A DNA stretch of 64,000 nt from Candidatus Omnitrophota bacterium (lineage in GTDB: Bacteria; Omnitrophota; Gorgyraeia; VGKH01): contig JAKLEP010000002.1 in the NCBI GenBank assembly GCA_022703055.1, positions 160,480 through 224,479 of the forward strand, given 5' to 3'. Below, in pieces: positions 47,416 to 61,718 of the stretch. The notes under the pieces are model-generated. The model was given only the letters and a program-made list of their open reading frames with translations, was not told where the DNA came from and did no database searches. The translations under genes and the position numbers were made by a program. Positions within the stretch are counted from its first letter, which is position 1. Every line of letters starts with the position of its first letter.

Positions 47416-47691
47416 TTATTTTTCCATTTCTAAAACAAACTTAATTGCACTAATATTTACATGCCTGTCTTCCATCAAATAATGTATATATTCAAGTTTC
47501 TGAATCTGAACCATTGAATAACAACGCGTCTTTTTGCCAATACGCTTTGGTTTGATTATACCCTTCTTCTCTAATTCACGTAGGGTCCAGACTGGAATAT
47601 GGCAAATCTTGCTGGCAATGCTTATAACATACACCGGCTCGTCAGGATCTATCTGGACTTTCATTTTATTTGCATCTTGCGGCTTATCCAT
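47416..47691 (-). CDS. MerR-family transcriptional regulator, HspR-like
   Basis: 91 aa. VYVISIASKICHIPVWTLRELEKKGIIKPKRIGKKTRCYSMVQIQKLEYIHYL is a MerR-type HTH in the pattern of HspR-like heat-shock repressors. GGGGG SD 5 nt upstream of the ATG. Confidence 0.7.
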   Translation of the reverse strand: MDKPQDANKMKVQIDPDEPVYVISIASKICHIPVWTLRELEKKGIIKPKRIGKKTRCYSMVQIQKLEYIHYLMEDRHVNISAIKFVLEMEK

Positions 47692-47715
47692 TTCAACCCC
47701 CTACTTCCAGATAAA

Positions 47716-47744
47716 AATATAGCATATCTTAATAATATTGTCAA
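47716..47744 (-). promoter_or_regulatory. Sigma-70-type promoter for the HspR-like gene
   Basis: The minus strand reads TTGACA (47744..47739), a 17-nt spacer, then TATATT (47721..47716), about 25 nt upstream of ATG 47691. The dyad ATATCTT-N12-AAGATAT (47724..47749) overlaps the -35 hexamer and spacer. Confidence 0.65.
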
Positions 47745-47787: not shown

Positions 47788-47827
47788 AAATAAAAGAGCC
47801 GCACTGACTTTCCAGTCAGGGCGGCTC
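47788..47827 (-). terminator. Rho-independent terminator ending the pilin/giant-protein/paralog unit
   Basis: The minus strand reads GAGCCGCCCTGAC-TGGAAA-GTCAGTGCGGCTC followed by TTTTATTT: a 12-bp stem with one mismatch, beginning 50 nt after the stop at 47877. Confidence 0.8.
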
Positions 47828-47876
47828 CTAGACCTAAAATGGTCTATATTACAGCAGAAACTATGTTTATACTATT

Positions 47877-49310
47877 TTACTGTACAAAACACCTACAGGA
47901 TTCGCATTCACTGCAATTAAGCCATGTGCTGCTTGTCTGAATCCAATAATAGTCATAGTTTTGAGCGGATGCGTATCCAGTACATGAAGTACCGACCTTC
48001 TGGGTACAATATGAAGTTGTGTAATTGAAACCTAATAACTTACAGAATTGCTGGCAATCATCGCCGCCGTTATCTCCTCTATAACCAACGATATCATATT
48101 CTCCGCCCGTTCCATCTCGTATATGAGGATTAGATAAATCGACATAAGCTATGCTGCCACTAAATCCTCTAGCGCAATTGGCATATGAGGCTCTTTCATC
48201 TTCGAGCGCAGTGTTGGTCTCGTTTACCCAGACACTTCTAGGAGGACACCAAGCAGGACAATCTGTTCCATCTGCTTTACATAATTTCTTATTATTCTCT
48301 TCTATTGTACCGGTAACATCCAATTTAACATTGGGAGTTGTGTTTCCGATACCCACATTACCACCGTTAATATATGAGGTACCTGCCGGATCAAGTTTAA
48401 TATTTGCCGACATGGTCGGGAATCCGCTACCGATATCAGCATAACTCTTGACAACATCTCCTAATGAAATAGAACCATCCAACCATAAACGATAATTAGA
48501 ACCATATTGGCCATCCGGGCCTAAATACATCATGGTGTATTTAGCGCCGTCATTGACATTCTCATGCGTCCAGCCGAATCCCCAGCCGCTGTTGTCGGCG
48601 ATCAATCTTGAATCGACAACATAAGGATAGATTGCGCCCAGGCGTCCTGATTTGACATAAGTAGTATCAAAAGCGCCAAGCGAAAGAAGGTTGGTTTCAT
48701 AGTTAGAGCCGCCAAGTTGCAATCTAGCCAAAGGACTTGCAGTCCCCACTCCTATTTTATTAGCACCCGGCAAAATTAGGTCTCCTGTTCCTGTCTTTAG
48801 ATACATCAACCAACCAATTTCATCAGGAGAATACCAACCAAAGGCATAATTGACTGATGGCTTGGACATGAACCAATATCTTAATGCAGAAGGAACTTCG
48901 AATTTTAGCTGGTCCATGCTCCTGGTAAGCACCAAGTTATCGGTGAACCGGCCTCCTCCTGTAACATCTAATTTATATGATGGACTGGTTGTTCCAACTC
49001 CCACATTAGAACCAGTCTGATAGACTACAGAATTACCAAGAGTGCTTGTGCCTGTAAATATAGGAAAGTAATTTGTAGTTCCGCTTCCGCCGATTCCTGA
49101 AGCAGCAGAAGTCTGCCAAGTGGCAAGACCGGTAGCATCTGAGGTAAGCACCTTACCGGCACCGGGAGAACCTCCTTTAATCGTTATCTGGCCGTTGACC
49201 GTGACACTTTGCGCGGTTATCGGGCCGTCGACGACTTGCAGTTCGGCGAATGCATTGACATAAAAACCTAAACCTACTACTACGGCTAGCACTATTAGTA
49301 ACTTTTTCAT
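47877..49310 (-). CDS. Secreted fibre-like protein, paralog 2 (variable Cys-rich C-terminal domain)
   Basis: Signal peptide MKKLLIVLAVVVGLGFYVNAFA, ITIKGGSPGAGKVLTSDATGLATWQ, a repeated (N/K)(V/I)G(V/I)G(T/N)(T/A)(S/T)P..(K/R)L(D/Q)(V/L) motif, and a C-terminal 140 aa with 13 Cys; 477 aa. Confidence 0.6.
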   Translation of the reverse strand: MKKLLIVLAVVVGLGFYVNAFAELQVVDGPITAQSVTVNGQITIKGGSPGAGKVLTSDATGLATWQTSAASGIGGSGTTNYFPIFTGTSTLGNSVVYQTGSNVGVGTTSPSYKLDVTGGGRFTDNLVLTRSMDQLKFEVPSALRYWFMSKPSVNYAFGWYSPDEIGWLMYLKTGTGDLILPGANKIGVGTASPLARLQLGGSNYETNLLSLGAFDTTYVKSGRLGAIYPYVVDSRLIADNSGWGFGWTHENVNDGAKYTMMYLGPDGQYGSNYRLWLDGSISLGDVVKSYADIGSGFPTMSANIKLDPAGTSYINGGNVGIGNTTPNVKLDVTGTIEENNKKLCKADGTDCPAWCPPRSVWVNETNTALEDERASYANCARGFSGSIAYVDLSNPHIRDGTGGEYDIVGYRGDNGGDDCQQFCKLLGFNYTTSYCTQKVGTSCTGYASAQNYDYYWIQTSSTWLNCSECESCRCFVQ

Positions 49311-49338
49311 TTTAGTACCTCCATATCTTTTTGCTTAA

Positions 49339-49367
49339 CTTATATCAAATTATTCTAATAATTGCAA
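49339..49367 (-). promoter_or_regulatory. Candidate internal sigma-70-like promoter upstream of paralog 2
   Basis: The minus strand reads TTGCAA, 17 nt, then TATAAG in the 99-nt gap between the paralogs. AT-rich context, so it could be fortuitous. Confidence 0.3.
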
Positions 49368-49409
49368 ATAATTATAAAGACGTTTTGTTTTGTTTTTATT
49401 TATCACCTT

Positions 49410-50870
49410 CTATTGCTTAGTTATCACATCATGATGATAAGCACAACTTGCCGTTTCTCCTCTGCATTGAGTTCCTGAACTATAATACCTTGTAAAATGG
49501 CAGGTTGAGCTAGTTGTAATTTGCCCCTGACAAGTCTCCCCTGGATTTATTCCGCAATAACAATAGTACGTATCATTGCTATTGCATGGGCTATTGCATT
49601 GATAATATTTTGTCATTATGATACTATCACCACTCTTAAGGACATAAGCTCCATTAGACTTGATATCACCATTTACATCAAGCTTAACAGTCGGGCTTGC
49701 TGTCCCTACACCGACATTAGTTGATGTTACTGTCAATGGAGCAGCACCACTACCGGCCTGAACATGCAGTTTCTGACTAGAACTATCCACTCTTAAAACT
49801 GCATCACCGGCTACAGCACTGGTAGAATATTGCCCAGATGCCGCAGCTATAGCTAATCTTGCTTCTGAAGCTGTACGGCCAAGTCCTATGTCCGTACGAC
49901 TTGTGCCGGCTCCGCTGAGCACCGACAATGCTTCAGCATCAGGACTTACTACTGTAAGTTTTTTACTGGGCGCGCTTGTTCCAATGCCTACATTACCTCC
50001 AGTAAAATATGAAGTACCGGCGGGGTCAAGCTTAACCGTCGGTGTCATAGTTGGGAATCCGGTTCCTATATCAGCATAGCTTTTAGCAATATCGCCCAAT
50101 GAAATAGCGCCATCTAACCATAAACGATAATTGGCACCAAATTGGCCATTCGGCCCTAAATACATCATTGAATACTTATCACCCGTAGTAACATTCTCAT
50201 GAGTCCATCCAAACCCCCAGCCGCTTTCATCAGCAATTAATCGTGTGTCTATGACATAGGGATAGATTGCGCCTAAGCGTCCTGCCTTGACATAAGTTGT
50301 ATCAAATCCACCAAGCAGGAGAAGATTATTTTCGTAGTTAGAGTTGCCTAGCTGTAGCTTTCCTAATGGACTGGTGTTACCAACACCGATATTATCGGCA
50401 AAATAATTGGCGGTCCCGCCGTAGCCCCAGCTAAAATATGAGCCAGTATACCAAAGGGCTTCAGCGTCATTAACTCTTAGGGCAACACCCGTTAATCCTT
50501 TATTAAGGTTGAGCGGACCGGCAATATCAAGTTTATAGGCTGGAGAAGTTGTGCCAATACCAACATTGGTTCCGCTCTGATAAACCGCAGAATTTCCTAT
50601 AGAAGTTGTACCGCTAAATATAGGAAAATAATTTGTAGTACCGCTTCCGCCAATACTGCCAGAGGAAGGCGACTGCCAAGTAGCAAGGCCGGTTGAATCC
50701 GAAGTAAGCACCTTGCCGCTACCGGGAGAACCTCCTTTAATCGTTATCTGGCCGTTGACCGTGACACTTGCCGCGGTTATCGGGCCGTCGACAACTTGCA
50801 GTTCGGCGAATGCATTTGCATAAAAACCTAAACCTACTATTACGGCTAGCACTATTAGTAACTTTTTCAT
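49410..50870 (-). CDS. Secreted fibre-like protein, paralog 1 (different Cys-rich C-terminal domain)
   Basis: Signal peptide MKKLLIVLAVIVGLGFYANAFA. The first roughly 60 aa are nearly identical to paralog 2, and it has the same repeated VGIGT.P..KL motif (4 copies). The C-terminal 70 aa contain 10 Cys; 486 aa. Confidence 0.6.
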   Translation of the reverse strand: MKKLLIVLAVIVGLGFYANAFAELQVVDGPITAASVTVNGQITIKGGSPGSGKVLTSDSTGLATWQSPSSGSIGGSGTTNYFPIFSGTTSIGNSAVYQSGTNVGIGTTSPAYKLDIAGPLNLNKGLTGVALRVNDAEALWYTGSYFSWGYGGTANYFADNIGVGNTSPLGKLQLGNSNYENNLLLLGGFDTTYVKAGRLGAIYPYVIDTRLIADESGWGFGWTHENVTTGDKYSMMYLGPNGQFGANYRLWLDGAISLGDIAKSYADIGTGFPTMTPTVKLDPAGTSYFTGGNVGIGTSAPSKKLTVVSPDAEALSVLSGAGTSRTDIGLGRTASEARLAIAAASGQYSTSAVAGDAVLRVDSSSQKLHVQAGSGAAPLTVTSTNVGVGTASPTVKLDVNGDIKSNGAYVLKSGDSIIMTKYYQCNSPCNSNDTYYCYCGINPGETCQGQITTSSTCHFTRYYSSGTQCRGETASCAYHHDVITKQ

Positions 50871-50904
50871 TTTAGTACCTCCTAATTATCATTCTCGCTA
50901 ATAA

Positions 50905-53900
50905 CTAATTTGGACCGCTTGAGCCAGCCTCATTAACCATCCTCATTACTTTGTTGTGGACAACTACATCGTCGGCTATATAGGTATGGTTAGGCTCAAC
51001 CTCCAAATTATATACGTCTACGATAGAATCTTTCGCTTCTATCTTAGTTATCTTCTTTAGTGCTAGCTGTGAATCATCTGAAACCATAATCTTGTCTCCG
51101 ACCTTCAAAGTAGAGGCCTCGACATATTCCTTGCCGTTATATATAGGGTGAATGCCAGTTACATTCAAGGCCCTGCCACCTTCAGTCTCTATGACAAAAT
51201 ATCCTTTCATCATAGGATGAGGGAAGGTTTTGGTTACTTCTGAAGCAACTGTCTTTCCTTCAGGAGTAACGCTTAAGACCTTATCACCAGTCAAGACTTT
51301 CTCAATGGCCTTGGATGTTCCGTCTGCCATAGCAATCTTAGTCCCTGGCAATAAGCATCCTCCGCCGCCTCCACCTGTGGAGTGACGGATAATGTTCGTA
51401 TTCACAAAAGTTGTCATACCAGTTCCAGATACATATACCGCATCAGATAAAGAATCTGTCGCTCTGTTGCGATAGATTTCTGTCCCGGAAATAGTCGTTG
51501 CCTTATTAGAGTTAATATAGATACCGCCGCCCTTACTTGTCGAGCCGTTAGCGACGTTATCTTCAATATCGCAGTTTTCAATGTTAACCGGCGCATTATC
51601 AACTACAATACCACCGCCGTTGCCGGATGTCAATCCGTAAGAGATACCAAAACCTCTAAAAGTAACAAGATTGGTCGCGGCTGCAAAATTGACCACCGGC
51701 GTGGTTAGCGCTTGGCTTTGGCCGCTGATAATTGTATCGTTTGGATTAGCAGATGTACTCTCAACGGTTAATGCCTTATTTCTATTGAAAGTGATCCTTT
51801 CATTATAGATTCCCGGAGCAGCGGTAATCCTGAAATTATTATCCAGGGATGCATAATTAAGCGCCTCTGTTATAGTATTGTAACATGCAACGCAAACTGA
51901 AGAAGCGTTATAGACCTTTACAGGATTGTTGCACCCGGTAACGTTAATATTGACCGTCGCTGTGTTGCTCCACAAAGGTGTAGTGCAGGCATTGCTAACC
52001 CTGTAAGTGAAACTATCAGCCCCTATGTATCCAGCTGTTGGTGTATAGGTGAAGCTACCATTAACAGACAAGGAAAGCGTACCATGCAAAGGATCGCTCA
52101 TTTTCTGCACGCTTCCAAAAGCCCAAGTAGGAGCTTCAGGATTAACATCGTTTATGACAACTCCATTAGAGAAGGTCACTGTTAAAGTGCTATTTTGTGT
52201 AGCGGTATAACTATCATTGACTGCCACTGGTGGATCATCGCAACGCTGGGAAATACTAAGCCTAACCAACGTCACATTACCTTGTGTTCCGCTACCGCAA
52301 TCGCTTACTGGCCTGTAGGTAAACGTATCTTCACCATACCAGTTAGCGCTCGGTACATAAGTAAACGAACCTGGGCCGTATGTATTCATTGTCAATGTTC
52401 CATGGCTAGGACCAGTTACTAAAACTGCTGATGCAGGTTCGCCTCCACCATTATTTGGATCGATATCATTATCCAGTAAGGTAGGCGCATACCCACCAAG
52501 AGACATATCTTCTGCCCCATAATAGTGATCTTCAACGCCTGTCGGAAGTTGGCAGCTATTGACAGTTAAATAAACTGTAGCTACGTTGCTGTATAAGTTA
52601 TTGCAACTGCTGCGCGCCCTGTAAGTGAAGCTATCACTACCGGTATAACCCGTTGTTGGCGTATAAGTGAATGAACCGTTGGTATTCAAAGTCACTGTTC
52701 CATGGGATGGGTCACTATACTTATAAGCAGTTAACGTAACTCCGCCATCAACGCTATAATCATTGGCTAATACACCGGGAGCGGCTACGGTATAAGCAGT
52801 ATTAATCATAACATCGCTGTAGGTATCATTCACTGCTACTGGGTTATCGCAGGCCTTAGCTACAGAGATGTTGCGGCTGACTGTATTGGAATTTACGCAT
52901 CCATCGGTTACTGTGAAGCTGACTGTGCGAGTGGCTGTCGATGGATCCTCCGAGGTATTCCTGTATCTTACTGAACGTAGCGCAAGTTGATAGTTGGCAA
53001 CTGTTGCGCTTCCGGATAGTGTCATGGTTCCAGTGGTTGAGTTCCAGCTACCGGTTATGCCGTTAGCTGTAGTGTATTCTAGAAGATCCTGGTTGCTAGT
53101 ATAATTGGCGGTAATCTGGACCGTGCCGCCAGTTAAATTCGTACTATCAGCATCTGTTACGGTTATGGTGCTAGAAATAACTGTCGCTGACTGGTTCTCG
53201 GTATAGCTTAAAGTACTGGTTTCAATATTAGCTAATACCGGAGCGTCACAGACAGATGCGATAGTAATGTTACGAGTTACTGTATTGGAATCCACACATC
53301 CATCATTAACCTTGAATGTGACTGTACGTGTGGCTGTCGATGGATTCTCCGAGGTATTCCTATATGTTACCGCGCGTAGCGCAAGTTGATAGTTGGCTAA
53401 TGTTGCGCTGCCGGTTAATGTCATGGTACCGGTGGTTGAGTTCCAGCTACCGGTTATGCCGCTGACGCCTGGGAATGCCAGGACATCTTGGCTACTGGCA
53501 TAATTGCTGGTAATCTGGACTGTACCCCCGGTTAAGTTGGTACTGTCTGTATCCGTTACTGTTATACTACCAGTAATCGCTGTAGCTGCTTGATTCTCAG
53601 TGTAAGCCAACGCAGCAGTCTCAATATTAGCTAAGACTGGAGGACTGCAAACCGTACCCACGTTGATATTACGTGTGGCTGTATTGGAATCTAACCCGCC
53701 ATCATTTACTTTGAAACTCACTGTGCGTTGCAAAGTTGATGGATTAGCGGAGGTATTCCTATATGTTACCGCGCGTAGCGCAAGTTGATAGTTGGCAACT
53801 GAAGAGCTGCCGGTTAATGTCATGGTACCGGTGGATGAGTTCCAGCTACCGGTTATGCCGCTGACGCCTGGGAATGCCAGGATATCTTCAGCGCTGGCAT

Positions 53901-56900
53901 AATTGCCGGTGATCTGGACTGTGCCGCCGGCCAAGTTAGTACTGTCAACATCTGTAACTGTGATAGTCGAAGTAATTGCTGTAGCTGCCTGGCCTTCATC
54001 ATAACTTAAAGCACTGGTCTCGATGTTAGCCAAGACTGGTGCATCAGGAACAGATGTTAAACTTATAGCTCTGCTGACCGTGTTAGAACTCACGCATCCA
54101 TCAGTTACTGTAAAGCTGACTGTTCGTTGCAGAGTTGATGGATTCTCCGAAGTATTCCTATATGTCACTGAGCGTAACGCGAGTTGATAGTTGGCTAATG
54201 TTGCGCTACCGGTTAATGTCATGGTACCGGTGGATGAGTTCCAGCTACCGGTTATGCCGCTGGCTGCGGTAAAGGCTAAGACATCTTCAGCGCTGGCATA
54301 ATTGCCGGTGATCTGGATTGTACCGCCGGTTAAATTGGCACTATCAACATCTGAAATAGTAATAGCCGAAGTGATAGCTGTAGCTGCTTGATTCTCAGTG
54401 TAAGCTAATGCGGAAGTCTCAATATTAGCTAATACTGGAGCATCACAAACAGATGTGATAGTAATGTTACGAGTTACTGTATTGGAATTCACACATCCAT
54501 CAGTTACTGTAAAGCTGACTGTTCGTTGCAGAGTTGATGGATTCTCCGAAGTATTCCTATATGTCACTGAGCGTAACGCAGTCTGATAATTAGCTAACGT
54601 TGCGCTACCGGTTAGTGTCATGGTACCGGTGGATGAATTCCAGCTACCGGTTATGCCGCTGACGCCTGGGAATGCTAAGACATCTTCAGCGCTGGCATAA
54701 TTGCCGGTGATCTGGACTGTGCCTCCGGTTAAGTTGGTGCTATCTGTATCTGTTACGGTTATAGCACCAGTAATTGCCGTAGCTGCCTGATTCTCGGTAT
54801 AAGCCAATGCTGAAGTTTCGATATTGGCTAATGCAGGGGCATTGCAGACAGGTGTTATAGTGATATTGCGTGTAACCGTGTTAGAATTCACGCATCCATC
54901 ATTCACTGTGAAACTTACTGTGCGTTGTAAAGTTGATGGGTTAGATGAAGTATTCCTATATGTTACCGCGCGTAGCGCAGCCTGATAGTTGGCTAATGTT
55001 GCGCTGCCGGTTAATGTCATGGTACCGGTGGATGAGTTCCAGCTACCGGTTATGCCGCTGACGCCTGGAAATGCCAGGACATCTTCAGCGCTGGCATAAT
55101 TGCCGGTGATCTGGACTGTGCCTCCGGTTAAGTTGGTGCTGTCAACATCTGTAACTGTGATAGCGCTGGTAATCGCTGTAGCTGCCTGGCCTTCAGTATA
55201 ACCTAAAGCACTGGTCTCGATGTTGGCTAAGACTGGTGCGTCGCAGACAGCTCCCACTGTGATGTTGCGTGTAACTGTATTAGAATCCACGCATCCATCA
55301 TTAACCTTGAATGTAACTGTACGCTGCAAGGTTGATGGATTATCCGAAGTATTCCTATATGTCACTGCGCGTAGCGCAGTCTGATAGGTAGCCAATGTTG
55401 CGCTGCCGGATAGTGTCATGGTTCCGGTGGATGAGTTCCAGCTACCGGTTATGCCGCTGACACCTGGGAATGCCAGGACATCTTCCGCGCTGGCATAATT
55501 GCCGGTGATCTGGACTGTGCCACCTGCTAAACTAGTACTATCAACATCGGAAATTGTTATATTGCTGGTAACCGCTGTGGCTGATTGATTCTCAGTGTAA
55601 GCCAATGCAGCAGTCTCAATATTAGCTAAGACTGGAGCATCGCAAACAGCTCCTATAGTTATACCACGAGATACTGTATTAGAAGATAAAGCACCATCAG
55701 TTACTGTAAAGCTGACTGTTCGTTGCAGAGTTGATGGATTCTCCGAAGTATTCCTATATGTTACCGCGCGTAGCGCAAGTTGATAGTTGGCAACTGTTGC
55801 GCTGCCGGTTAATGTCATGGTACCGGTGGTTGAGTTCCAGCTACCGGTTATGCCGCTGACGCCTGGAAATGCCAGGACATCTTGGCTGCTAGCATAATTG
55901 CCGGTGATTTGGACTGTACCGCCTGCCAAATTGGTGCTGTCGGCATCTGTAACCGTTATGGTACCAGTGATTGCCGTAGCTGCCTGATTCTCAGTGTAAG
56001 CCAATGCAGCGGTCTCAATATTAGCTAATACTGGAGCATTACCAACTGCACCCACGTTTATATTACGAGTTGCTATGTTAGAATTCAAAGCACCATCATT
56101 TACCCTAAAGCTTACTGTGCGCTGCAAAGTTGATGGTGTGGCTGAAGTATTCCTGTAAGTTACTGTACGTAACGCAGCCTGATAGTTGGCAACTGAAGAA
56201 CTGCCGGTTAGTGTCATAGTTCCGGTAGATGAATTCCAGCTACCGGTTATACCGCTGGCAGCTGTGAATTCAAGAAGATCCTCACCGCTGGCATAATTGC
56301 CAGTAATCTGGACTGTACCGCTAGCTAAGTTAGCGCTATCAACATCTGTGGCGGTCATTGTCGTGGTAATAGCTATTGCCGGCTGGCCTTCCGTGTAGCT
56401 TAAAGCGCTGGTCTCAATGTTGGCCAAGACTGGCGCATCAGGTACCGGTTGAACGGTAATCGATGTGGTAGCCGTATTGCTAATTCTACTGGTACTATCA
56501 ATAATATTATAGGTGAAACTATCTCCGCCGTTGTAGTCAGCCGCTGGAGAATATCTGATGGTAAGATTCCCAGTATTTATAGTTGCGGTTCCGTGAGAAG
56601 GCGCACTAACAATACTGTTAATGGTTATAGTATCTCCAGTATCGGGATCGTAGTCATTATTCATAACCGAGAGATTTGTAGGCGTATCTTCATTAACTGA
56701 TAAGCTGTCATTGACCGCTACTGGCGCATCTGGCATGGCATTAAGATTAACCGTTACTGTGGCTGAATTGCTTATCAAATGTGAAGTACTGGAATCTTGA
56801 ATTCTATAGGTAAAGGTATCTGTGGTCCCGTCAAAGTCAGGGTTGGGAACATAATGCAAAGCATCTATAATCTGAGTAACTGTGCCATTTGCCGGTTGAG

Positions 56901-59496
56901 TAAAATCGTAAATGGCAATAGTGTCTCCTGAGTCGGGATCGTAATCAACTCCAAAACCATTATCTAACAAAACAGAAATATCTATAGGGACATCTTCGTC
57001 GGTTGTCGCGGTATCATCTCTTGCCACCGGATTATCAGGAACCGGACTAACTACTAACATTACTTGCGCAAAACCACTGCAAGCACCATAAGTATCGCAT
57101 GCCCTGTAAGTAAAGTAATCCGTGCTGCTGAAATTAGGATTTGGCGTATAAGTAAAAGAACCATCAGCGCCAAACGTGTTTAAGGTTCCGTAACTTGGGC
57201 CAGTTGCACCCGTTCTATCTGCATGTATTGGGTCTCCGTCCGGATCAGAATCATCACTCAATACTCCGGGGGCAGCAACTGTTCTAGGTGTATCCTCAGT
57301 AAGAAAATAACTGTTGTTATTTGCCACAGGAGGATTGTTAGCAGTCACAGTAATCGCAACGTTTAATTTGGCGCTATGCAATCCGTAATAATCAGTAGCG
57401 ATAAAAGTAACGGTGTAAGAACCGGTCGCTGATGGTGTCCAGCTAAAGCTTCCGGTATCTGTGGCATCGTTAAAATTAAAAGTTGCTCCACTGGGTAAAT
57501 TAAATGCACTGATATCAGTCACGTTCAAAGGAGCAACGCCAGTATCTACGCCCGTGACGGTGAAAGTTAAAGTTTCGCCGACACGTTTTGAAAAAGGCCC
57601 AGCTGGGCTGGAACTGATAGTCGGTATACCTCTATCTGCTCTAAGATAAGTACCTGTATTCTTTAAGTTTTGTCTAAATTTCGGCCAAGGCATAGTTGTA
57701 GACGGAGTGGATAAATCCCATATATGGGCGTTTCCGCTCAAGTCTGCAATAGCGGCTCTAAACAAAGTTGTACTCCCCAATGCCCCAACGCTTGGTGAAG
57801 ATAATTCTATTGTCCCCATTCCCGTCTTTGGGAAACCATCAACTGGATCAGCTACGCCATAAGGTGTATCTTGATCATCATGATGATAACCATAGAGATT
57901 GCCATCCCAGCATCCTATGAGCACTTCAACGTCGCCGTCATTGTCAATATCCACCAATGCTGGAGATGAATCATATGCGGTCGACATAGTAACACTGGTC
58001 CTGTCTACCGGCCATCCAACGACTGTAGTACCGTCATGATGCAAAGCATAGACTCCGCCATCAGATGTGCCTGCGACCAATTCAAGATCTTGATTATATT
58101 CTTCAAGGCCTGTTGTGCCATAAAGCGCTAAATTTCCTATAGCAACTGAAGAGGTTGATGCAGCGCTGGTGCCTCCTAATCTCTTAGGCCAACCTAAACC
58201 TGTACCACTCGGCCAGGCTTCAACATAAGTAGCATCTTGATTCAAAGCGTACATATGCGCCGTGCTTGTTACGACAGCGACTTCCAGAATTCCATCGCCA
58301 TCAACATCCGCTAACGCAGGAGAAGAGTTAAAATATCCCTGGCCAGCGGGACGGTCAAAGAATCTACCGTCTGAATTTAGATAACCTACAAAATTTGTCC
58401 CATTATATCTCCATGCGCATAATCTAGTGGAATGTGCGGTTATGATTTCAGGGTAACCGGTTCCGCCAATATTTCCAACCGCAGGAGAAGAGTTGACGAT
58501 ACTGGGATAACCAAAAATAGAACCAATACGTGCCCCGGCATAATTCCAAATGTTGACACCGCCGTTGGTGCCTACTGCGATGATCTCAAGATTGGTATCG
58601 TTGTTGACGTCTTCAAGCACTACAGAGTTATCGATGGAATCATTTGCGGCGCCAGTACTATCCAAGGCCTGAATTGGGAATCCAGTGACAGGATCGGCTA
58701 AGCCATCGCTATTGAGATCCTGCGCATGCCAGACATAGACTTTGCCGTTGGTATTTCCAACCACTACTTCCATGATACTGCCGTCTTTATCCAAATCGGC
58801 TATCGCAGGAGTACCTTTAACAGAAATACCAGCTTCTGTCTGGGCGAATAAACCATTGGATTGAGATGGGAAGAAGCTTCCCCATGTCCCACCGCTATAA
58901 TTCCAAGCATAGATATCGCCGTTATCATCGGCAAAAATCAGCTCTCCTTCAGGATCGGTATCTAAATTGACAATGACTGGCGAAGAATGAATAGGATAAA
59001 CCGGAGATCCGATACTCAATAAACTCATCCCGCCCGGCAAATCTGGTGTTTCATCCGGAAGGCTCCCCTTATAAAGATATGGCTCTCCTGTCTCTTTAAT
59101 CCTGAACCCTATATTGGTGCCTTTGATGTCAGCCTGGCCTAAAAACTCAGGGTTATCCCCTGCTTTGTAATCGACATAGGCTTCATTGAGGCTTACGCCC
59201 AAGGCGGTGTTTATCTGGCTTATGCCGTTAGCAAAGAAATATTTACTGTGGCTGGGGAAATAATCAGCTATTTGGCCTGTCTGAATCTCTGCAAGGCCGG
59301 CCTTGGCCATATCGATTTTCTCTTCTAATGTCGGCTCACTACTACCTCCGCCGCCGCCCCCGTCGCCATCTGCAATCATAAAATTCATCTCGGCTGAGAC
59401 GGGAGCTAAGGCTAAACTCCAACACATCAAGATAACTAGTGGCCGGATTAAGTAAACATGAAACCAGCTTTTTCTATCTTTGATTAGCTTTTTCAT
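50905..59496 (-). CDS. Giant secreted multi-domain adhesin-like protein (2863 aa): FG-GAP/VCBS-type beta-propeller, Ig/cadherin-like domains, 9 x 133-aa repeats, parallel beta-helix, C-terminal Hint/BIL domain
   Basis: AAGGAG SD and an N-terminal hydrophobic signal-like segment. D-x-D/N-x-D-G loops (DLDKDG, DVNNDTNLE, DVDGDGILE, DIDNDGDVE) and WPKFRQNLKNTG fit a propeller. Repeated P-V-A-x-(N/D)-D...SFTYTP units are cadherin/Ig-like. GGGI..D/GGGIYINS beta-helix rungs precede GGGGGGCLLPGT...VVVHN. Confidence 0.85.
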   Translation of the reverse strand: MKKLIKDRKSWFHVYLIRPLVILMCWSLALAPVSAEMNFMIADGDGGGGGGSSEPTLEEKIDMAKAGLAEIQTGQIADYFPSHSKYFFANGISQINTALGVSLNEAYVDYKAGDNPEFLGQADIKGTNIGFRIKETGEPYLYKGSLPDETPDLPGGMSLLSIGSPVYPIHSSPVIVNLDTDPEGELIFADDNGDIYAWNYSGGTWGSFFPSQSNGLFAQTEAGISVKGTPAIADLDKDGSIMEVVVGNTNGKVYVWHAQDLNSDGLADPVTGFPIQALDSTGAANDSIDNSVVLEDVNNDTNLEIIAVGTNGGVNIWNYAGARIGSIFGYPSIVNSSPAVGNIGGTGYPEIITAHSTRLCAWRYNGTNFVGYLNSDGRFFDRPAGQGYFNSSPALADVDGDGILEVAVVTSTAHMYALNQDATYVEAWPSGTGLGWPKRLGGTSAASTSSVAIGNLALYGTTGLEEYNQDLELVAGTSDGGVYALHHDGTTVVGWPVDRTSVTMSTAYDSSPALVDIDNDGDVEVLIGCWDGNLYGYHHDDQDTPYGVADPVDGFPKTGMGTIELSSPSVGALGSTTLFRAAIADLSGNAHIWDLSTPSTTMPWPKFRQNLKNTGTYLRADRGIPTISSSPAGPFSKRVGETLTFTVTGVDTGVAPLNVTDISAFNLPSGATFNFNDATDTGSFSWTPSATGSYTVTFIATDYYGLHSAKLNVAITVTANNPPVANNNSYFLTEDTPRTVAAPGVLSDDSDPDGDPIHADRTGATGPSYGTLNTFGADGSFTYTPNPNFSSTDYFTYRACDTYGACSGFAQVMLVVSPVPDNPVARDDTATTDEDVPIDISVLLDNGFGVDYDPDSGDTIAIYDFTQPANGTVTQIIDALHYVPNPDFDGTTDTFTYRIQDSSTSHLISNSATVTVNLNAMPDAPVAVNDSLSVNEDTPTNLSVMNNDYDPDTGDTITINSIVSAPSHGTATINTGNLTIRYSPAADYNGGDSFTYNIIDSTSRISNTATTSITVQPVPDAPVLANIETSALSYTEGQPAIAITTTMTATDVDSANLASGTVQITGNYASGEDLLEFTAASGITGSWNSSTGTMTLTGSSSVANYQAALRTVTYRNTSATPSTLQRTVSFRVNDGALNSNIATRNINVGAVGNAPVLANIETAALAYTENQAATAITGTITVTDADSTNLAGGTVQITGNYASSQDVLAFPGVSGITGSWNSTTGTMTLTGSATVANYQLALRAVTYRNTSENPSTLQRTVSFTVTDGALSSNTVSRGITIGAVCDAPVLANIETAALAYTENQSATAVTSNITISDVDSTSLAGGTVQITGNYASAEDVLAFPGVSGITGSWNSSTGTMTLSGSATLATYQTALRAVTYRNTSDNPSTLQRTVTFKVNDGCVDSNTVTRNITVGAVCDAPVLANIETSALGYTEGQAATAITSAITVTDVDSTNLTGGTVQITGNYASAEDVLAFPGVSGITGSWNSSTGTMTLTGSATLANYQAALRAVTYRNTSSNPSTLQRTVSFTVNDGCVNSNTVTRNITITPVCNAPALANIETSALAYTENQAATAITGAITVTDTDSTNLTGGTVQITGNYASAEDVLAFPGVSGITGSWNSSTGTMTLTGSATLANYQTALRSVTYRNTSENPSTLQRTVSFTVTDGCVNSNTVTRNITITSVCDAPVLANIETSALAYTENQAATAITSAITISDVDSANLTGGTIQITGNYASAEDVLAFTAASGITGSWNSSTGTMTLTGSATLANYQLALRSVTYRNTSENPSTLQRTVSFTVTDGCVSSNTVSRAISLTSVPDAPVLANIETSALSYDEGQAATAITSTITVTDVDSTNLAGGTVQITGNYASAEDILAFPGVSGITGSWNSSTGTMTLTGSSSVANYQLALRAVTYRNTSANPSTLQRTVSFKVNDGGLDSNTATRNINVGTVCSPPVLANIETAALAYTENQAATAITGSITVTDTDSTNLTGGTVQITSNYASSQDVLAFPGVSGITGSWNSTTGTMTLTGSATLANYQLALRAVTYRNTSENPSTATRTVTFKVNDGCVDSNTVTRNITIASVCDAPVLANIETSTLSYTENQSATVISSTITVTDADSTNLTGGTVQITANYTSNQDLLEYTTANGITGSWNSTTGTMTLSGSATVANYQLALRSVRYRNTSEDPSTATRTVSFTVTDGCVNSNTVSRNISVAKACDNPVAVNDTYSDVMINTAYTVAAPGVLANDYSVDGGVTLTAYKYSDPSHGTVTLNTNGSFTYTPTTGYTGSDSFTYRARSSCNNLYSNVATVYLTVNSCQLPTGVEDHYYGAEDMSLGGYAPTLLDNDIDPNNGGGEPASAVLVTGPSHGTLTMNTYGPGSFTYVPSANWYGEDTFTYRPVSDCGSGTQGNVTLVRLSISQRCDDPPVAVNDSYTATQNSTLTVTFSNGVVINDVNPEAPTWAFGSVQKMSDPLHGTLSLSVNGSFTYTPTAGYIGADSFTYRVSNACTTPLWSNTATVNINVTGCNNPVKVYNASSVCVACYNTITEALNYASLDNNFRITAAPGIYNERITFNRNKALTVESTSANPNDTIISGQSQALTTPVVNFAAATNLVTFRGFGISYGLTSGNGGGIVVDNAPVNIENCDIEDNVANGSTSKGGGIYINSNKATTISGTEIYRNRATDSLSDAVYVSGTGMTTFVNTNIIRHSTGGGGGGCLLPGTKIAMADGTSKAIEKVLTGDKVLSVTPEGKTVASEVTKTFPHPMMKGYFVIETEGGRALNVTGIHPIYNGKEYVEASTLKVGDKIMVSDDSQLALKKITKIEAKDSIVDVYNLEVEPNHTYIADDVVVHNKVMRMVNEAGSSGPN
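50953..51357 (-). other. Hint (Hedgehog/intein) domain, bacterial intein-like (BIL) type, aa 2714-2848 of the giant protein
   Basis: CLLPGTKIAMADGT (block A, Cys1), NVTGIHPIY (block B, T-x-x-H), VYNLEVEPNHTYIADDVVVHN (blocks F/G ending in HN). It is followed by Lys and only 15 further residues. Confidence 0.8.
51376..51927 (-). other. Parallel beta-helix (pectate-lyase-like) region of the giant protein, aa 2524-2707
   Basis: Periodic rungs: ITAAPGIYNERITF, LTVES...DTIISG, GGGIVVDNAPVNIENCDIEDN, GGGIYINSNKATTISGTEIYRN. Confidence 0.55.
52849..56436 (-). repeat. Nine head-to-tail copies of a 399-bp (133-aa) coding repeat inside the giant gene (aa 1021-2217)
   Basis: Each unit begins APVLANIETxAL(A/S)YTE(N/G)Q and ends ...SNT(V/A)(T/S)RNI(T/S/N)xxx(V/A)C(D/N/S). 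Long nucleotide strings, for example gttccagctaccggttatgccgct and ggtaccggtggatgagtt, recur at 399-bp spacing. Confidence 0.9.
57652..59004 (-). other. FG-GAP/VCBS-like beta-propeller region of the giant protein, about aa 165-615
   Basis: Recurrent hydrophobic-strand plus Asp/Asn-rich Ca-binding-like loops (ADLDKDG, EDVNNDTNLE, ADVDGDGILE, VDIDNDGDVE) alternating with aromatic-Gly turns (GKVYVW, GGVNIW, GNLYGY, NAHIWD). Confidence 0.6.
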
Positions 59497-59535
59497 TTTC
59501 TCTTCTCCTTCTTAGAAAATGGTTTTTTTATCAGT

Positions 59536-59949
59536 CTAATATTTACATCCTACCGGCGAAGAACAATAAGGTTCGCCATCCTTAACGCTCAAGTAACCTT
59601 CGACTTGAATAGTCATGGCTGGAGTCTTCTTATAAACAGCTTTCCCAAGATATGCTGGACTAGCCGAAGGATTATCTGCAACACTATAATCCCAACTTCT
59701 TTCATTCAAATCTAAGAAAAGATCAGTGTTGATTGCATTTATATCTGTAGTATATAAATGATAAGTGCCATTTCTTAAGTTATAAACTTTTTGCGCTGCA
59801 TATATGGCCCGAAGGCTGCTTTTTGCTTCGCTGACATCGGCCCTTACAACAACATCTTTATATACTGGCACTGCGATACCGACAGAAACTCCCAGTATCA
59901 CAACAACCACTATCAACTCCATCAATGTTATTGCATTTCTCTTTTTCAT
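59536..59949 (-). CDS. Type IV pilin / pseudopilin-like protein (prepilin-type N-terminal domain)
   Basis: MKKRNA/ITLMELIVVVVILGVSVGIAVP: a basic leader, Glu at +5 and a hydrophobic alpha1-N helix. The C-terminal CSSPVGC is a possible disulfide loop. Start is set at Met14 of the track ORF (ATG 59949); the track start 59988 would add an MILIIMNEMKEKI extension. Confidence 0.7.
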   Translation of the reverse strand: MKKRNAITLMELIVVVVILGVSVGIAVPVYKDVVVRADVSEAKSSLRAIYAAQKVYNLRNGTYHLYTTDINAINTDLFLDLNERSWDYSVADNPSASPAYLGKAVYKKTPAMTIQVEGYLSVKDGEPYCSSPVGCKY

Positions 59950-59990
59950 TATCTTTTCTTTCATTTCATTCATTATTATTAATATCATTC

Positions 59991-60030
59991 AACAAAAAAT
60001 CCAGACCATAGCTTTCAAGCGTACGTCTGG
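59991..60030 (-). terminator. Intrinsic terminator forming the riboswitch expression platform
   Basis: The minus strand reads CCAGACGTACGCTTGAAAGCTATGGTCTGG (outer 6-bp CCAGAC/GTCTGG stem plus inner TA and GC pairs) followed directly by ATTTTTTGTT. It lies between the aptamer and the pilin start. Confidence 0.6.
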
Positions 60031-60054
60031 ATTTCTCCATTCAAAACTTAACCT

Positions 60055-60146
60055 CGTTATCGGTACGCTCGGCTGCCATGGAATTACTTCTTTAGGCCCG
60101 AAACTTTGCGCCCCCGTCTTTCGACGGGTTTGCCCCCGCCATAAAC
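60055..60146 (-). promoter_or_regulatory. c-di-GMP-I (GEMM-I) riboswitch aptamer
   Basis: The minus strand reads GTTTATGGCGGGGGCAAACCCGTCGAAAGACGGGGGCGCAAAGTTTCGGGCCTAAAGAAGTAATTCCATGGCAGCCGAGCGTACCGATAACG. It matches the Vc2-type core GGGCAAACC-N4-GAAA-N4-GGGACGCAAAGCC..CGGCCTAAA....TACCGA, including the P2 GNRA hairpin CCGTC-GAAA-GACGG. It forms a GC-rich island in an AT-rich 476-nt gap. Confidence 0.85.
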
Positions 60147-60377
60147 TATGGCGGACCCCTGTCGGGGTTTTCGGATATTTCTACCCTTTACTAATGAATC
60201 ACTTTTTCTACTAAAAGATTACCATATATTCTCTGTTTTACAAGAGGGAAGGCTGCCTTTGAGAAAACGTTTTCTTATCTTCGCTTAAACCTATGTATAT
60301 CAGCATGTTAAGACATAATACCAACAAAAATAATTAAAAAAATTAGCAATTTATATACAAAAAAATCGGTTTTAGAC

Positions 60378-60406
60378 AAATAAAAAACCGCCTGTTTTTA
60401 GGCGGT
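60378..60406 (-). terminator. Rho-independent terminator downstream of hflX
   Basis: The minus strand reads ACCGCCT-AAAAAC-AGGCGGT (perfect 7-bp stem) followed by TTTTTTATTT, 59 nt after the hflX stop. Confidence 0.8.
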
Positions 60407-60464
60407 CGAGAAATATAAGGATATGTTTTTTCTACTTAAATCTTATCAAGGACTTAGCGATAAA

Positions 60465-61718
60465 TCATACCTGCTTATGATAAGTCGATAATTTTTTAGC
60501 CGTAACTATCGGCAAACTAGCTTTTATATTTGCTCCATCGGCATTATAATCTATACTGTATACTTCACCCTCGCGATAGATTTGATCAACCAAATCCATG
60601 CGGTTTATAGGAATAAATAAATCTATCACTGTAATCAAAGCTGAAAGTTCGGTTTCGATTTTCTCAAGAAGCTGCTCAATATTTTCTTTCTTCAATGCCG
60701 ATACGGCCACGGGATTAATGAAGTCTCTCTTCAGCCTCTCAATCCAGCCCCTGTCTTCAAGCTTGTCGATTTTGTTTAAAACCGTAACGATTGGTTTATC
60801 GTCAGCGCCAAGCTCTTTTAATACTTCATAAACTGCCTTGTTATGTTCATAACATCTGGCATGGCTTACATCCAAAACATGCAACAATAGATCGGATTCC
60901 TTAACCTCTTCCAAAGTCGCCTTGAATGCCTCGATTAGATGGTGCGGCAGGTGGCTCAAAAATCCGACGGTATCAGAAATGACTATCTTCTGATGGTTAG
61001 AAAGAGCGAGGCTTCTTGACAATGAATCAAGCGTAGTAAATAGACTGTCTCTTACGTGTTGCTCCGAACCGGTAAGCGTGTTTAAAAGCGTGGATTTTCC
61101 AGCATTTGTATAACCTACTAAAGCCACCGATGGGATATGTTTCTCTTTTCGTTTCTTTCTGGTGTTCTCGCGATGTTTCGTTAAATCTGATAAGTCTTTT
61201 CTTAATTTATCGATGCGTTTTCTGATGCGCCTGCGGTCAACTTCAAGCTTCTGCTCGCCTGGGCCTCTGGTCCCAATCCCACCGCCAAGCCTAGAAAGAA
61301 TGATACCTTTACCGGTAAGCCGCGGCAATAAGTATTCAAGCTGAGCAAGCTCTACCTGGATTTTTCCTTCCTGGCTTTTGGCATGCTGGGCAAAGATATC
61401 AAGAATAAGCTGGGTTCTGTCAATAATCTTAATTTTGATTATCTCTTCTAGATTTCTCTGCTGTGTGCCGCTAATATCGTCGTCAAAGATAACCGTATCG
61501 GCTGAATTCCCTTCGGCAATCATGGCGATTTCTTCCGCTTTGCCTTTGCCGATGAACATCCCCGGAGTCGGCTCCTGCCGCATACAAATAACCTTCTCAG
61601 TGACCCCAGCGCCTGCGGTATGGGTCAATTCTTCGAGTTCGGCAAGCGAATCCTCGGGGTTTAGCTTCTTAAAATGCTTGTCTTTAAAATCTACGCTGAC
61701 TAATATTGCCTTTTCCAT
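60465..61718 (-). CDS. hflX: GTPase HflX
   Basis: HflX N-terminal domain (LAELEELTHTAGA...), then G-domain motifs GYTNAGKST, DTVGF, NKID; 417 aa. Confidence 0.93.
   Translation of the reverse strand: MEKAILVSVDFKDKHFKKLNPEDSLAELEELTHTAGAGVTEKVICMRQEPTPGMFIGKGKAEEIAMIAEGNSADTVIFDDDISGTQQRNLEEIIKIKIIDRTQLILDIFAQHAKSQEGKIQVELAQLEYLLPRLTGKGIILSRLGGGIGTRGPGEQKLEVDRRRIRKRIDKLRKDLSDLTKHRENTRKKRKEKHIPSVALVGYTNAGKSTLLNTLTGSEQHVRDSLFTTLDSLSRSLALSNHQKIVISDTVGFLSHLPHHLIEAFKATLEEVKESDLLLHVLDVSHARCYEHNKAVYEVLKELGADDKPIVTVLNKIDKLEDRGWIERLKRDFINPVAVSALKKENIEQLLEKIETELSALITVIDLFIPINRMDLVDQIYREGEVYSIDYNADGANIKASLPIVTAKKLSTYHKQV

Follow-up and report, generated by a model that had tools for sequence, protein, structure and literature searches.

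We analyzed a 64-kb stretch of DNA from a Candidatus Omnitrophota bacterium (GenBank assembly GCA_022703055.1, contig JAKLEP010000002.1, positions 160,480 to 224,479; here called the window), in which a riboswitch for cyclic di-GMP (c-di-GMP) stands ahead of four genes for surface proteins. The unit is chromosomal and lies between hflX and a merR-hrcA-grpE-dnaK block, with every element on the minus strand. In the order of transcription, a c-di-GMP-I aptamer (60059..60144; Rfam family RF01051) with its own terminator (59994..60037) is followed by a type IV pilin-like gene of 137 amino acids (aa) (59536..59949; the open reading frame (ORF) as called starts at 59988, the likely start is 59949). 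Then come the gene of a giant surface protein of 2863 aa (50905..59496), defined by its ORF and Pfam domains, and two fibre-like paralogs. Paralog A (486 aa; 49410..50870) was defined by its ORF, motifs and a family profile, and paralog B (477 aa; 47877..49310) by its ORF and comparison with paralog A.

The upstream boundary is the intrinsic terminator of hflX (60376..60407, minus strand), an 8-bp GC-rich stem with a T-run (60407-60386 plus the T-run; -13 kcal/mol, z score -4.0). At the other end, an intrinsic terminator at 47788..47828, also on the minus strand, is part of a fold of -38.4 kcal/mol (z -6.8). The gaps between the four genes measure 39 nucleotides (nt) (pilin/giant), 34 nt (giant/paralog A) and 99 nt (paralog A/paralog B), and none holds a terminator-like fold (the 99-nt gap gives z -0.5 against shuffles). 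Both fibre genes start in a shared ribosome-binding context (GGAGGTACTAAAATG / GGAGGTACTAAAATGAAAAAG). A candidate promoter read from the sequence lies at 60216..60243 on the minus strand (TTGTAA, a 16-nt spacer, and TGgTAATCT with a weak -10 and an extended TG). It falls below the consensus threshold of our promoter scan; both of its hexamer regions are kept, with a variable spacer, in the window lineage (W) and four further Omnitrophota lineages (R1, R2, R3 and R4).

An earlier note on this DNA had described a single co-directional four-gene block bracketed by two strong terminators. Its gaps were exact, and its terminators lay within a few bases of those given here. It had further named a riboswitch leader, a type IV pilin-like gene, an FG-GAP/cadherin giant with a Hint end and two secreted paralogs with differing tips, and had remarked on two nearby GGDEF cyclase genes and on the lack of pilus or secretion partners in the window. 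All of these identifications stand in the results below, to which we add the terminator at 60037-59994 as the expression platform of the aptamer.

The aptamer matches RF01051 over its full length (model positions 1-87) at 66.8 bits, against a gathering score of 35 (E 7e-11), and is the sole Rfam match in the window. RF01051 scores of 61-67 bits are reached in four other lineage or assembly groups. The covariance-model alignment has a G at model position 11, which neighbours the G12-C37 pair on its 5' side and is equivalent to G20 of Vc2. An A at this position reportedly (Kellenberger 2015; Nelson 2015) marks the Geobacter type that is selective for cyclic GMP-AMP (cGAMP), whereas a G marks the c-di-GMP type. 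A cGAMP-type GEMM-I riboswitch was therefore rejected. By its covariance-model match the leader is a genuine c-di-GMP-I riboswitch, with ligand binding predicted.

Two hairpins folded in silico (CCCCGACAGGGG and CCGCCAT...ATGGCGG; 60136..60167, minus strand) precede the aptamer core. The second of them reads CTCCGA...TCGGAG or CCTCCGACG...CGTCGGAGG in relatives, so that both strands have changed while pairing is kept, a compensatory pattern. This second hairpin (60136-60154) overlaps the first 9 aptamer model positions and lies outside the Rfam consensus structure. The R2 leader is interrupted by an insertion of about 82 nt (contig L010, 8030-8111) that carries two hairpins, sits between the G and the C of the P1 3' strand, and lowers the Rfam score to 29 bits. 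The R2 aptamer is otherwise near-identical, and about 150 nt more of hairpin-rich sequence separate its terminator from the pilin start. The insertion could be a small mobile element, the sign of a degenerating switch, or an extra helix tolerated by the junction.

The expression platform begins 21 nt past the aptamer and consists of a 13-bp stem, an 18-nt loop and a U-run (-19.7 kcal/mol). Its loop (60024-60006) is complementary to 60081-60063 over 9 + 7 bp, a target that includes the entire 3' strand of P2. The loop/P2 duplex is worth -24.0 kcal/mol, which none of 20000 composition-preserving shuffles of the loop reached (shuffle mean -9.4). For three of the four uninterrupted leaders (W, R1 and R3), folding the stretch between aptamer core and U-run without constraint gives a minimum-energy structure with this alternative helix and no terminator; once P2 is enforced, the terminator forms. 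When growing transcripts are folded, P2 stays until the loop has been made. From length 194 to 200, immediately before the terminator 3' strand emerges, the alternative helix has the lowest energy. None of the five lineages differs in either of the loop's pairing segments (GUACGCUU and GCUAUGG); the loop centre and the linker between aptamer and terminator vary.

The terminator is blocked when its loop sits in the 16-bp helix, and we therefore read the leader as an OFF switch. In the ligand-free leader, the terminator loop would pair during transcription with the P2 3' strand, the stem could not close, and the polymerase would read through. Binding of c-di-GMP would lock P2, free the loop and let the terminator form. 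Because the -24 kcal/mol pairing competes with P2, it should be accessible only without ligand. On these folding models, transcription of the operon is probably governed by a kinetic OFF switch, with expression at low c-di-GMP.

The opposite direction, in which c-di-GMP promotes read-through and the pilin, adhesin and fibres are made at high c-di-GMP, is possible but appears to us the less probable of the two. It would fit the usual rule that c-di-GMP favours attachment, and ON-type c-di-GMP riboswitches stand ahead of adhesin or pilin genes elsewhere (PMC7423583, PMC6200980, PMC6366702). We found no sequence, however, that would break the terminator specifically in the aptamer-folded state, and the sole strong alternative pairing, which no shuffle matched, is the one that competes with P2 and so belongs to the ligand-free state only. 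Some of our own results nevertheless speak against the OFF direction. With more 5' context, the minimum-energy fold of the full-length leader (length 207) is aptamer plus terminator without any constraint, and the R4 leader also folds in this way unconstrained; thermodynamics alone thus leaves the direction unsettled, and the OFF assignment is a kinetic argument. Aptamer and platform are also too invariant among the five lineages for covariation. Finally, a pilus ATPase of R2 carries an MshE-like c-di-GMP motif (37.1 bits, just below the cut-off of 38), and an OFF switch sits oddly with such an ATPase, which is expected to be activated by c-di-GMP. Should the OFF prediction prove right, the cell would build its attachment gear when c-di-GMP is low, contrary to the textbook rule, and this would suit an 'attack phase versus attached phase' life cycle.

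The earlier note had proposed a search for conserved synteny in relatives, and leader, pilin and giant are found together in all four further lineages as well as in W. R1 (JGI Ga0265297, a 671-kb contig) has the aptamer, the pilin, a 2679-aa Hint-terminated giant and three fibre genes, and then merR-hrcA. R2 is represented by the NCBI metagenome-assembled genome GCA_016867135.1 and by lake metagenomes, the metagenome scan contributing its 5' end only. One R2 contig carries hflX, the leader, the pilin and the start of the giant, and a second carries the Hint end of the giant, one fibre gene and merR-hrcA. A short Logan contig shows hflX, aptamer, pilin and the start of the giant in R3, and short Logan contigs show aptamer, pilin and giant start in R4. 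Fibre genes follow the giant in both relatives in which its 3' end is assembled (R1 and R2), and their number, W included, is one to three per locus.

Between W and R1, DNA identity is 86% for the non-coding leader, 79% for hflX, 84.5% for hrcA and 60% for the pilin gene; at the protein level, the pilin and the giant N-terminus are about 50% identical. The leader is thus far better kept than the pilin gene behind it, which argues for strong constraint on the regulatory RNA and fast evolution of its cargo. Gene order is maintained while the proteins diverge to 44-76% identity.

The pilin-like protein is, by its sequence, a putative type IV pilin with a class III signal peptide. Its leader MKKRNA precedes a mature protein that begins ITLME (MKKRNA, then ITLMELIVVVVILG; the ORF start reads MKKRNA/ITLMEL). 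The Pfam N_methyl model scores 22.9 bits against a cut-off of 21.2, and PilA and GspG N-terminal models match too. Searched against the PDB, the family profile finds 8TJ2 at 4e-10, followed by pilins of Geobacter, Neisseria and Thermus, with GspG weaker, and the major type IV pilins align to it from mature residue 1. Residues T+2, L+3 and E+5 and the two cysteines at the C-terminus, C129 and C135, are invariant in the five lineages. The cysteines could belong to a C-terminal disulphide loop like the one that type IV pilins carry on their globular alpha/beta head. Since just four relatives turned up in 5.8 billion clustered proteins, we regard the pilin as specific to this clade.

The giant begins with a Sec-type signal (APVSA/E). 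Behind it follow in order an FG-GAP region, cadherin-like/Big_9 'tandem-95' sequence, nine 133-aa repeats, a segment that looks beta-helix-like from its sequence, a Gly run, a Hint domain and a 15-aa tail. Pfam recognizes FG-GAP, Cadherin_4/Big_9/Cadherin_5 and PT-HINT/Hint, and the 'tandem-95' match reaches 2e-75. The nine tandem repeats (aa 1022-2218; 52843..56433, minus strand) are spaced exactly 133 aa apart, are 66-92% identical to each other, and register in TRF as a period of 399 with 8.7 copies. GC skew in the window is positive solely over this array (52-58 kb). Homologues of the giant with the same ends occur in the relatives, and a scan of genome contigs with its N-terminus yielded just one distant Omnitrophota fragment with no useful context. 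Pfam shows neither an RTX secretion signal nor a two-partner secretion domain, and a single LapB_rpt_80 match lies far below cut-off. A type I RTX/LapA-like or two-partner secreted adhesin was rejected on the absence of these domains, the lack of ABC, MFP and TpsB genes in the window, and the Sec signal at the N-terminus.

Several metagenome assemblies contain near-identical copies of the pilin, and in most of them the sequence is broken inside the giant gene. One JGI assembly, from the same strain and 99.992% identical to the window across 11.8 kb, lacks a single T at window position 53081, which leaves the giant in two pieces of 2146 and 706 aa. R1 has an intact orthologue of 2679 aa, and this argues that the intact reading is the real one. 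The single-nucleotide difference lies outside a homopolymer, so phase variation was rejected as the cause; a strain-level frameshift or an error of assembly is the likelier origin.

The C-terminal Hint domain of the giant (50953..51357, minus strand) matches PT-HINT at 2e-13 and Hint at 4e-8 in Pfam, and its best solved relative is 2LWY, a 'bacterial intein-like domain' (1.2e-13). Its Cys1 (Cys2714, after the Gly run), its TxxH motif (TGIHP) and its terminal His-Asn (VVVHN2848) are all intact. After the His-Asn comes a hydrophilic tail of 15 aa (KVMRMVNEAGSSGPN; 50908..50952, minus strand) whose first residue is Lys; the tails of the relatives' giants are 15-17 aa long and likewise begin with K. 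The +1 residue, Lys in three giants, is not a splicing nucleophile. The host protein diverges fast, with about 50% identity between W and R1. In both respects the domain departs from true inteins. By this signature the end of the giant is an A-type bacterial intein-like (BIL) domain, for which self-cleavage is predicted. R1 carries between hflX and the riboswitch an additional gene with its own terminator (L009, 7492-9408), encoding a 638-aa secreted TIM-barrel glycoside hydrolase (GH2_C-like) that ends in a Hint domain and a 14-aa tail, with Arg at +1. The Hint end is therefore not adhesin-specific in this clade.

An exhaustive search with the window Hint domain returned 12865 relatives. Among the best 150, 26 have a single Hint domain, and in 23 of these 26 it is the very last part of the protein, the match being followed by just 1-17 residues; many of the 23 begin with class III (prepilin or Flp/TadE-like) signal peptides. 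In the other 124 of the 150, Hint stretches are repeated within one protein, from 2 to 20 times and typically 3-5 times in 800-1100 aa. The combination of a prepilin or Flp/TadE-like N-terminus, a C-terminal A-type Hint domain and a short tail was seen in P0204, P0209, P0238, P0167, P0169 and P0276, the last with two Hint domains separated by only 'KP'. All three prepilin-Hint genes that could be placed lie in type IV filament loci. The first (L020, 8001-9278) belongs to a cluster of the R2 genome (GCA_016867135.1) with response regulators, two PilZ proteins, the PilB/GspE ATPase with the MshE-like motif noted above, PilC/GspF, pilins and PilM. The pilin-Hint protein of this cluster has 425 aa, a prepilin-type N-terminus and two tandem Hint domains, and it ends in HNKPIPTLPVEQNLPGGGDGF, a tail resembling that of the R2 giant. 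In the second locus (L021, 8001-8816) the pilin-Hint gene is followed by another pilin gene, and the third (L023, 8001-9278) is a Tad-like cluster with many tiny Flp-like genes. In the literature we searched, no paper links Hint or intein-like domains with pilins. That such domains repeatedly end pilin-like proteins encoded in type IV filament loci suggests that pilus-linked surface display involves a maturation step that has gone unstudied.

The L023 contig, which is unrelated to the window, also has a c-di-GMP-I-GGC variant riboswitch (RF03167, 62.1 bits; 12217-12309) ahead of a gene at 12473-16066. The product (>1198 aa) has Peptidase_C39-like and glycine-zipper domains, and the gene adjoins the Tad-like cluster that holds the Hint-terminated protein. 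With this contig, the pairing of a c-di-GMP riboswitch and a large protein beside a type IV filament locus has been seen twice.

Both fibre paralogs are secreted proteins. Paralog A has a Sec signal (NAFA/E), a GKVLTSD..ATWQ module, GNVGIGTTSP..KL.V repeats, one MAT-type beta-helix module and a Cys-rich tip; paralog B shares this plan over its N-terminal two-thirds and ends in an unrelated Cys-rich tip. Identity between the two falls from 77% (aa 1-125) to 54% (aa 126-330) and then to 17% in the tips, and the tips differ across six orthologues and paralogs. A prepilin signal at the hydrophobic N-terminus was considered and rejected, since the hydrophobic core before AFA/E is that of an ordinary Sec signal. 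Neither fibre has a Pfam or NCBIfam family or a Peptidase_S74 match. More than 1100 relatives, many named 'tail fiber domain-containing', are spread over Omnitrophota, Planctomycetota and other phyla.

The relation to solved structures emerges from family profiles. A 44-member fibre profile searched against all PDB finds the Bdellovibrio MAT structures 8OND (Bd2133; 5.2e-24), 8OML (5e-12), 8OJN (5e-11), 8OL4 (7.5e-11) and 8ON4 (1e-6). Its sole non-MAT match is weak (7DC3, an S74-type chaperone protein, 2.4e-3). A 6-sequence profile reaches the MAT structures at 1e-5, and PDB searches with each fibre as a single sequence gave nothing significant. The two paralogs would thus be short, non-S74, MAT-like fibres, predicted to be trimeric and surface-exposed. 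About 100 aa after the signal peptide are conserved among the paralogs, and residues 35-111 form a module that is found internally in other fibre proteins. In the window fibres this module of about 75 aa (GGSPGxGKVLTSDxxGxAxWQ...GSGTTNYFP.F.G...GNS..Y..G.NVGIGT) is N-terminal; dozens of other fibre proteins have it internally or close to the tip. It is present twice in a 480-aa paralog of R1 and weakly echoed ahead of the Bd2133 (8OND) tip domain. It may be a mobile joint or collar module.

Taken together, these observations make it probable that the locus is an operon supplying the exchangeable surface parts of a cell-contact apparatus, with its transcription gated by c-di-GMP. The pilin would be cleaved by prepilin peptidase and polymerized by a type IV pilus or type II secretion-like machine whose genes lie elsewhere. 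Sec would carry the giant adhesin and the fibres into the periplasm, and they would most likely reach the surface with the help of the pilin's machine. The A-type intein-like domain of the giant would cut itself off, maturing or releasing its passenger. The shared N-terminal part of the fibres would dock to the cell, and their differing tips would bind differing targets. Such a kit could serve attachment to host cells, prey cells or surfaces.

The four genes might instead form a co-transcribed island of unrelated surface proteins that act independently, brought together by a variable spot between hflX and hrcA; we hold this to be a less plausible account, although it has points in its favour. 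The locus is plastic, with one, two or three fibre genes and the extra glycoside hydrolase-Hint gene of R1, and fibre homologues occur elsewhere in unrelated contexts, for example in a glycan cluster (L008). The five lineages that share the arrangement are also closely related. Against independence stand the tight spacing, the single riboswitch and the lack of internal terminators, and the order persists through the protein divergence described above. The recurrence of Hint-terminated proteins in type IV filament loci also ties the end of the giant to pilus biology.

Several observations do weigh against the account that we prefer. The five lineages are one clade with about genus-level divergence (housekeeping genes near 80% DNA identity), and because they are such close relatives the synteny may be inherited rather than selected; it is evidence of retention, not of independent assembly. 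The AT-rich 99-nt gap could house an internal promoter. In the pilin, Ala at -1 and Ile at +1 replace the canonical Gly and Phe (the R1 pilin has the canonical pair, G/FTLMEL). AlphaFold2 monomer models were unusable both for the pilin (predicted local distance difference test (pLDDT) score 42.8, as expected for a 4-sequence alignment) and for the 486-aa fibre (pLDDT 54.7 with 44 homologues, as expected for a trimeric fibre). The equivalence of the short fibre N-terminus to the MAT anchor domain of about 130 aa is putative. For the organism of W, the scan for export machinery covered the 64-kb window. The case as a whole is built on sequence and predicted folding, and what goes beyond these we infer.

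For the Hint end, the most economical reading of its sequence and company is that it acts as a self-removing C-terminal pro-domain of proteins that travel with a type IV filament system. A more ambitious alternative, which we think unlikely, is a ligase-like anchor, in which an amine or other nucleophile of a pilin, of another envelope protein or of a lipid resolves the Gly-Cys2714 thioester. This would fix the adhesin (in relatives also the glycoside hydrolase and the pilin-like protein) covalently to the filament or envelope, much as cholesterol is joined to Hedgehog or as sortase substrates are anchored. The intact catalytic Cys, TxxH and HN with only a 14-19-aa tail behind them, the extreme C-terminal position in the 23 of 26 closest single-Hint relatives with their many prepilin signals, and the three genes within type IV pilus or Tad-like clusters would all agree with it. 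The nearest solved relative, 2LWY, is reportedly the domain that ligates without a nucleophilic side chain. Any acceptor, however, is hypothetical, and plain removal of a pro-domain accounts for the same data. A-type domains are described as self-cleaving and generally unable to ligate their flanks (PMC7765530). Equally improbable in our view is a wider reading, in which the C-terminal A-type Hint domains of this Omnitrophota clade, and of type IV filament loci more generally, form a hitherto unrecognised module for sorting or ligation that does a sortase-like job in a diderm. One cassette of Hint domain and short tail does end the pilin-like protein of the pilus gene cluster, the giant beside its dedicated pilin and the secreted glycoside hydrolase. 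On this reading the thioester would attach such cargo covalently to a pilus subunit or envelope acceptor, and the riboswitch would decide when the pilus is 'armed' with adhesin and prey-recognition fibres.

That the giant is instead a polymorphic toxin of contact-dependent inhibition (CDI) type, its PT-HINT domain releasing a C-terminal toxin, is hardly credible in spite of PT-HINT being the best Pfam model for the end and of the large repeat-rich secreted carrier. The A-type signature with 15 aa after the His-Asn (15-17 in relatives) excludes a pretoxin role, the downstream genes encode 486- and 477-aa secreted fibres and no small immunity protein, and the 64-kb window holds no TpsB, type VI secretion or Rhs context. 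A prophage remnant, for which the match of the fibres to PHROG tail-fibre families (phrog_9942, 1.7e-9) and the names of many relatives might speak, is just as improbable, given that there is no other phage gene in the 64 kb, that both fibres have Sec signal peptides, that the same chromosomal hflX-hrcA slot is occupied in several lineages, and that the only solved relatives are cellular Bdellovibrio fibres.

Upstream of the operon lies hflX (60465-61718, minus strand; TIGR03156, 1e-140). Past the operon terminator, the merR-hrcA-grpE-dnaK block begins at 47691 and runs downwards. A near-consensus sigma-70-type promoter (TTGACA-17-TATATT with TG, 11/12 matches, 47744-47716) stands just beyond the terminator, and a 91-aa MerR-family gene heads the hrcA-grpE-dnaK-dnaJ heat-shock block (47416-47744 region). 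This arrangement of promoter and merR at the head of the heat-shock block is kept in R1 and R2, with a GIY-YIG gene inserted after merR in R2. The two GGDEF cyclase genes, a GAF-GGDEF gene (37702-38997) and a GGDEF gene (36704-37714), were identified by Pfam. Among the other large ORFs of the window, Pfam finds no pilus or secretion component, only housekeeping and glycan or lipopolysaccharide genes (LptC, heptosyltransferase and similar). All gene-like ORFs of at least 100 aa in the window lie on the minus strand, and G+C content is 0.43-0.47 across the operon against 0.36-0.41 in most of the window.

The remaining proposals of the earlier note fared less evenly. A cell-contact or attachment apparatus for a host- or surface-dependent life is plausible, but the implication that c-di-GMP turns attachment on is at odds with a leader that looks OFF. 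The note called export unexplained, and the window does lack machinery; yet a pilin gene apart from its machinery is normal rather than anomalous, and the PilB/PilC/PilM cluster of R2 partly closes the gap. Homology searches, which the note had advised, linked the fibres to MAT structures by family profile and the Hint domain to 2LWY. The claim that this is not a described operon type was right about the combination and overstated otherwise, as all parts belong to known families and both riboswitch-pilin/adhesin and Omnitrophota giant loci are on record.

The closest regulatory counterparts are found in Firmicutes and Vibrio. The C. difficile pilA1 switch is of class II and heads an operon for the whole pilus machinery. 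As in the window, C. difficile pilA1, CD2831 and CD3246, B. thuringiensis cbpA and V. cholerae gbpA have a c-di-GMP aptamer in the 5' leader before a type IV pilin or large adhesin. Riboswitches for c-di-GMP ahead of pilin or adhesin genes are thus established in Clostridioides, Bacillus and Vibrio, and control is exerted, as here, at transcription termination (PMC6200980, PMC7423583, PMC6366702). Those pilin and adhesin switches are ON, however, whereas the window has a class I aptamer with a predicted OFF platform, and its pilin comes without machinery and together with a Hint-terminated giant and MAT-like fibres. No riboswitch has been described for Omnitrophota in the literature we searched. 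The V. cholerae MSHA/MshE system likewise ties c-di-GMP to an attachment pilus and compares with the R2 ATPase, with its MshE-like N-terminal motif and PilZ neighbours. MshE-type control would act on the ATPase protein, whereas the switch of the window works in cis, on transcription of the pilin and adhesin genes; the motif is sub-cut-off and was seen in a relative only.

The fibres resemble the non-S74 subgroup of the MAT (mosaic adhesive trimeric) fibres of Bdellovibrio bacteriovorus (Bd2133, Bd1334 and others; PMC10769870), which serve in prey recognition. MAT proteins have a signal peptide followed by a conserved beta-rich N-terminal domain of about 130 aa, and one subgroup carries an S74 chaperone-protease (PMC10769870). 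Shared with the window fibres are the signal peptide, shaft modules of the GNxGxGT..P..KL.V beta-helix type, unrelated swappable C-terminal tips and several paralogs per genome. The window fibres are shorter (about 480 aa against about 1000 aa) and have no S74 chaperone domain. They also stand in an operon with a pilin, a giant and a riboswitch, whereas the MAT paper (PMC10769870) never mentions an operon. The Hint end, in turn, shares with A-type BIL domains (Amitai 2003; Dassa 2004; reviewed in PMC7765530; 2LWY) the N-terminal Cys, TxxH, His-Asn, a non-nucleophilic +1 residue and a variable secreted host. It differs in sitting at the very end of its protein with a 15-aa tail, and in that its closest relatives are often fused to prepilin-type N-termini and lie in type IV filament loci.

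Within Omnitrophota, type IVa pili are near-universal (PMC10066038), and large putative adhesins are common in bacteria proposed to be predators or parasites (PMC10066038; bioRxiv 10.1101/2023.11.21.568195). Giant genes have been described beside type II/IV secretion-like loci; small genes whose products have class III signal peptides lie close by, and PilZ genes follow downstream (bioRxiv 10.1101/2023.11.21.568195). Like these loci, ours combines a very large adhesin, pilus-like genes and a link to c-di-GMP, which elsewhere takes the form of PilZ and GGDEF proteins. The giants on record are longer than 30,000 aa and have the entire machinery as neighbours. The giant of the window, at 2863 aa, has a single pilin gene beside it, and its tie to c-di-GMP runs through an RNA switch. 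Text searches of the papers on Omnitrophota giant genes (bioRxiv 10.1101/2023.11.21.568195; PMC10066038) turned up nothing relevant on Hint or intein domains, tail fibres or riboswitches.

Each part of the locus thus belongs to a known family. What is new is how they are combined. A loop-sequestering terminator is coupled to a class I aptamer, the pilin is specific to the clade and stands alone, the FG-GAP/cadherin adhesin ends in a Hint domain, and between one and three MAT-like fibres accompany them. Also new are the occurrence of such a riboswitch locus in Omnitrophota and the association of Hint domains with pilins. Omnitrophota are widespread, uncultured and ultra-small, and are thought to be predators or parasites, which makes the locus a candidate for cell recognition and attachment. 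The RNA switch over the whole operon can be assayed in vitro without culturing. Set beside the known systems, the locus joins fibres of the Bdellovibrio prey-recognition type, an integrin/cadherin-like giant and a dedicated pilin under one RNA switch.

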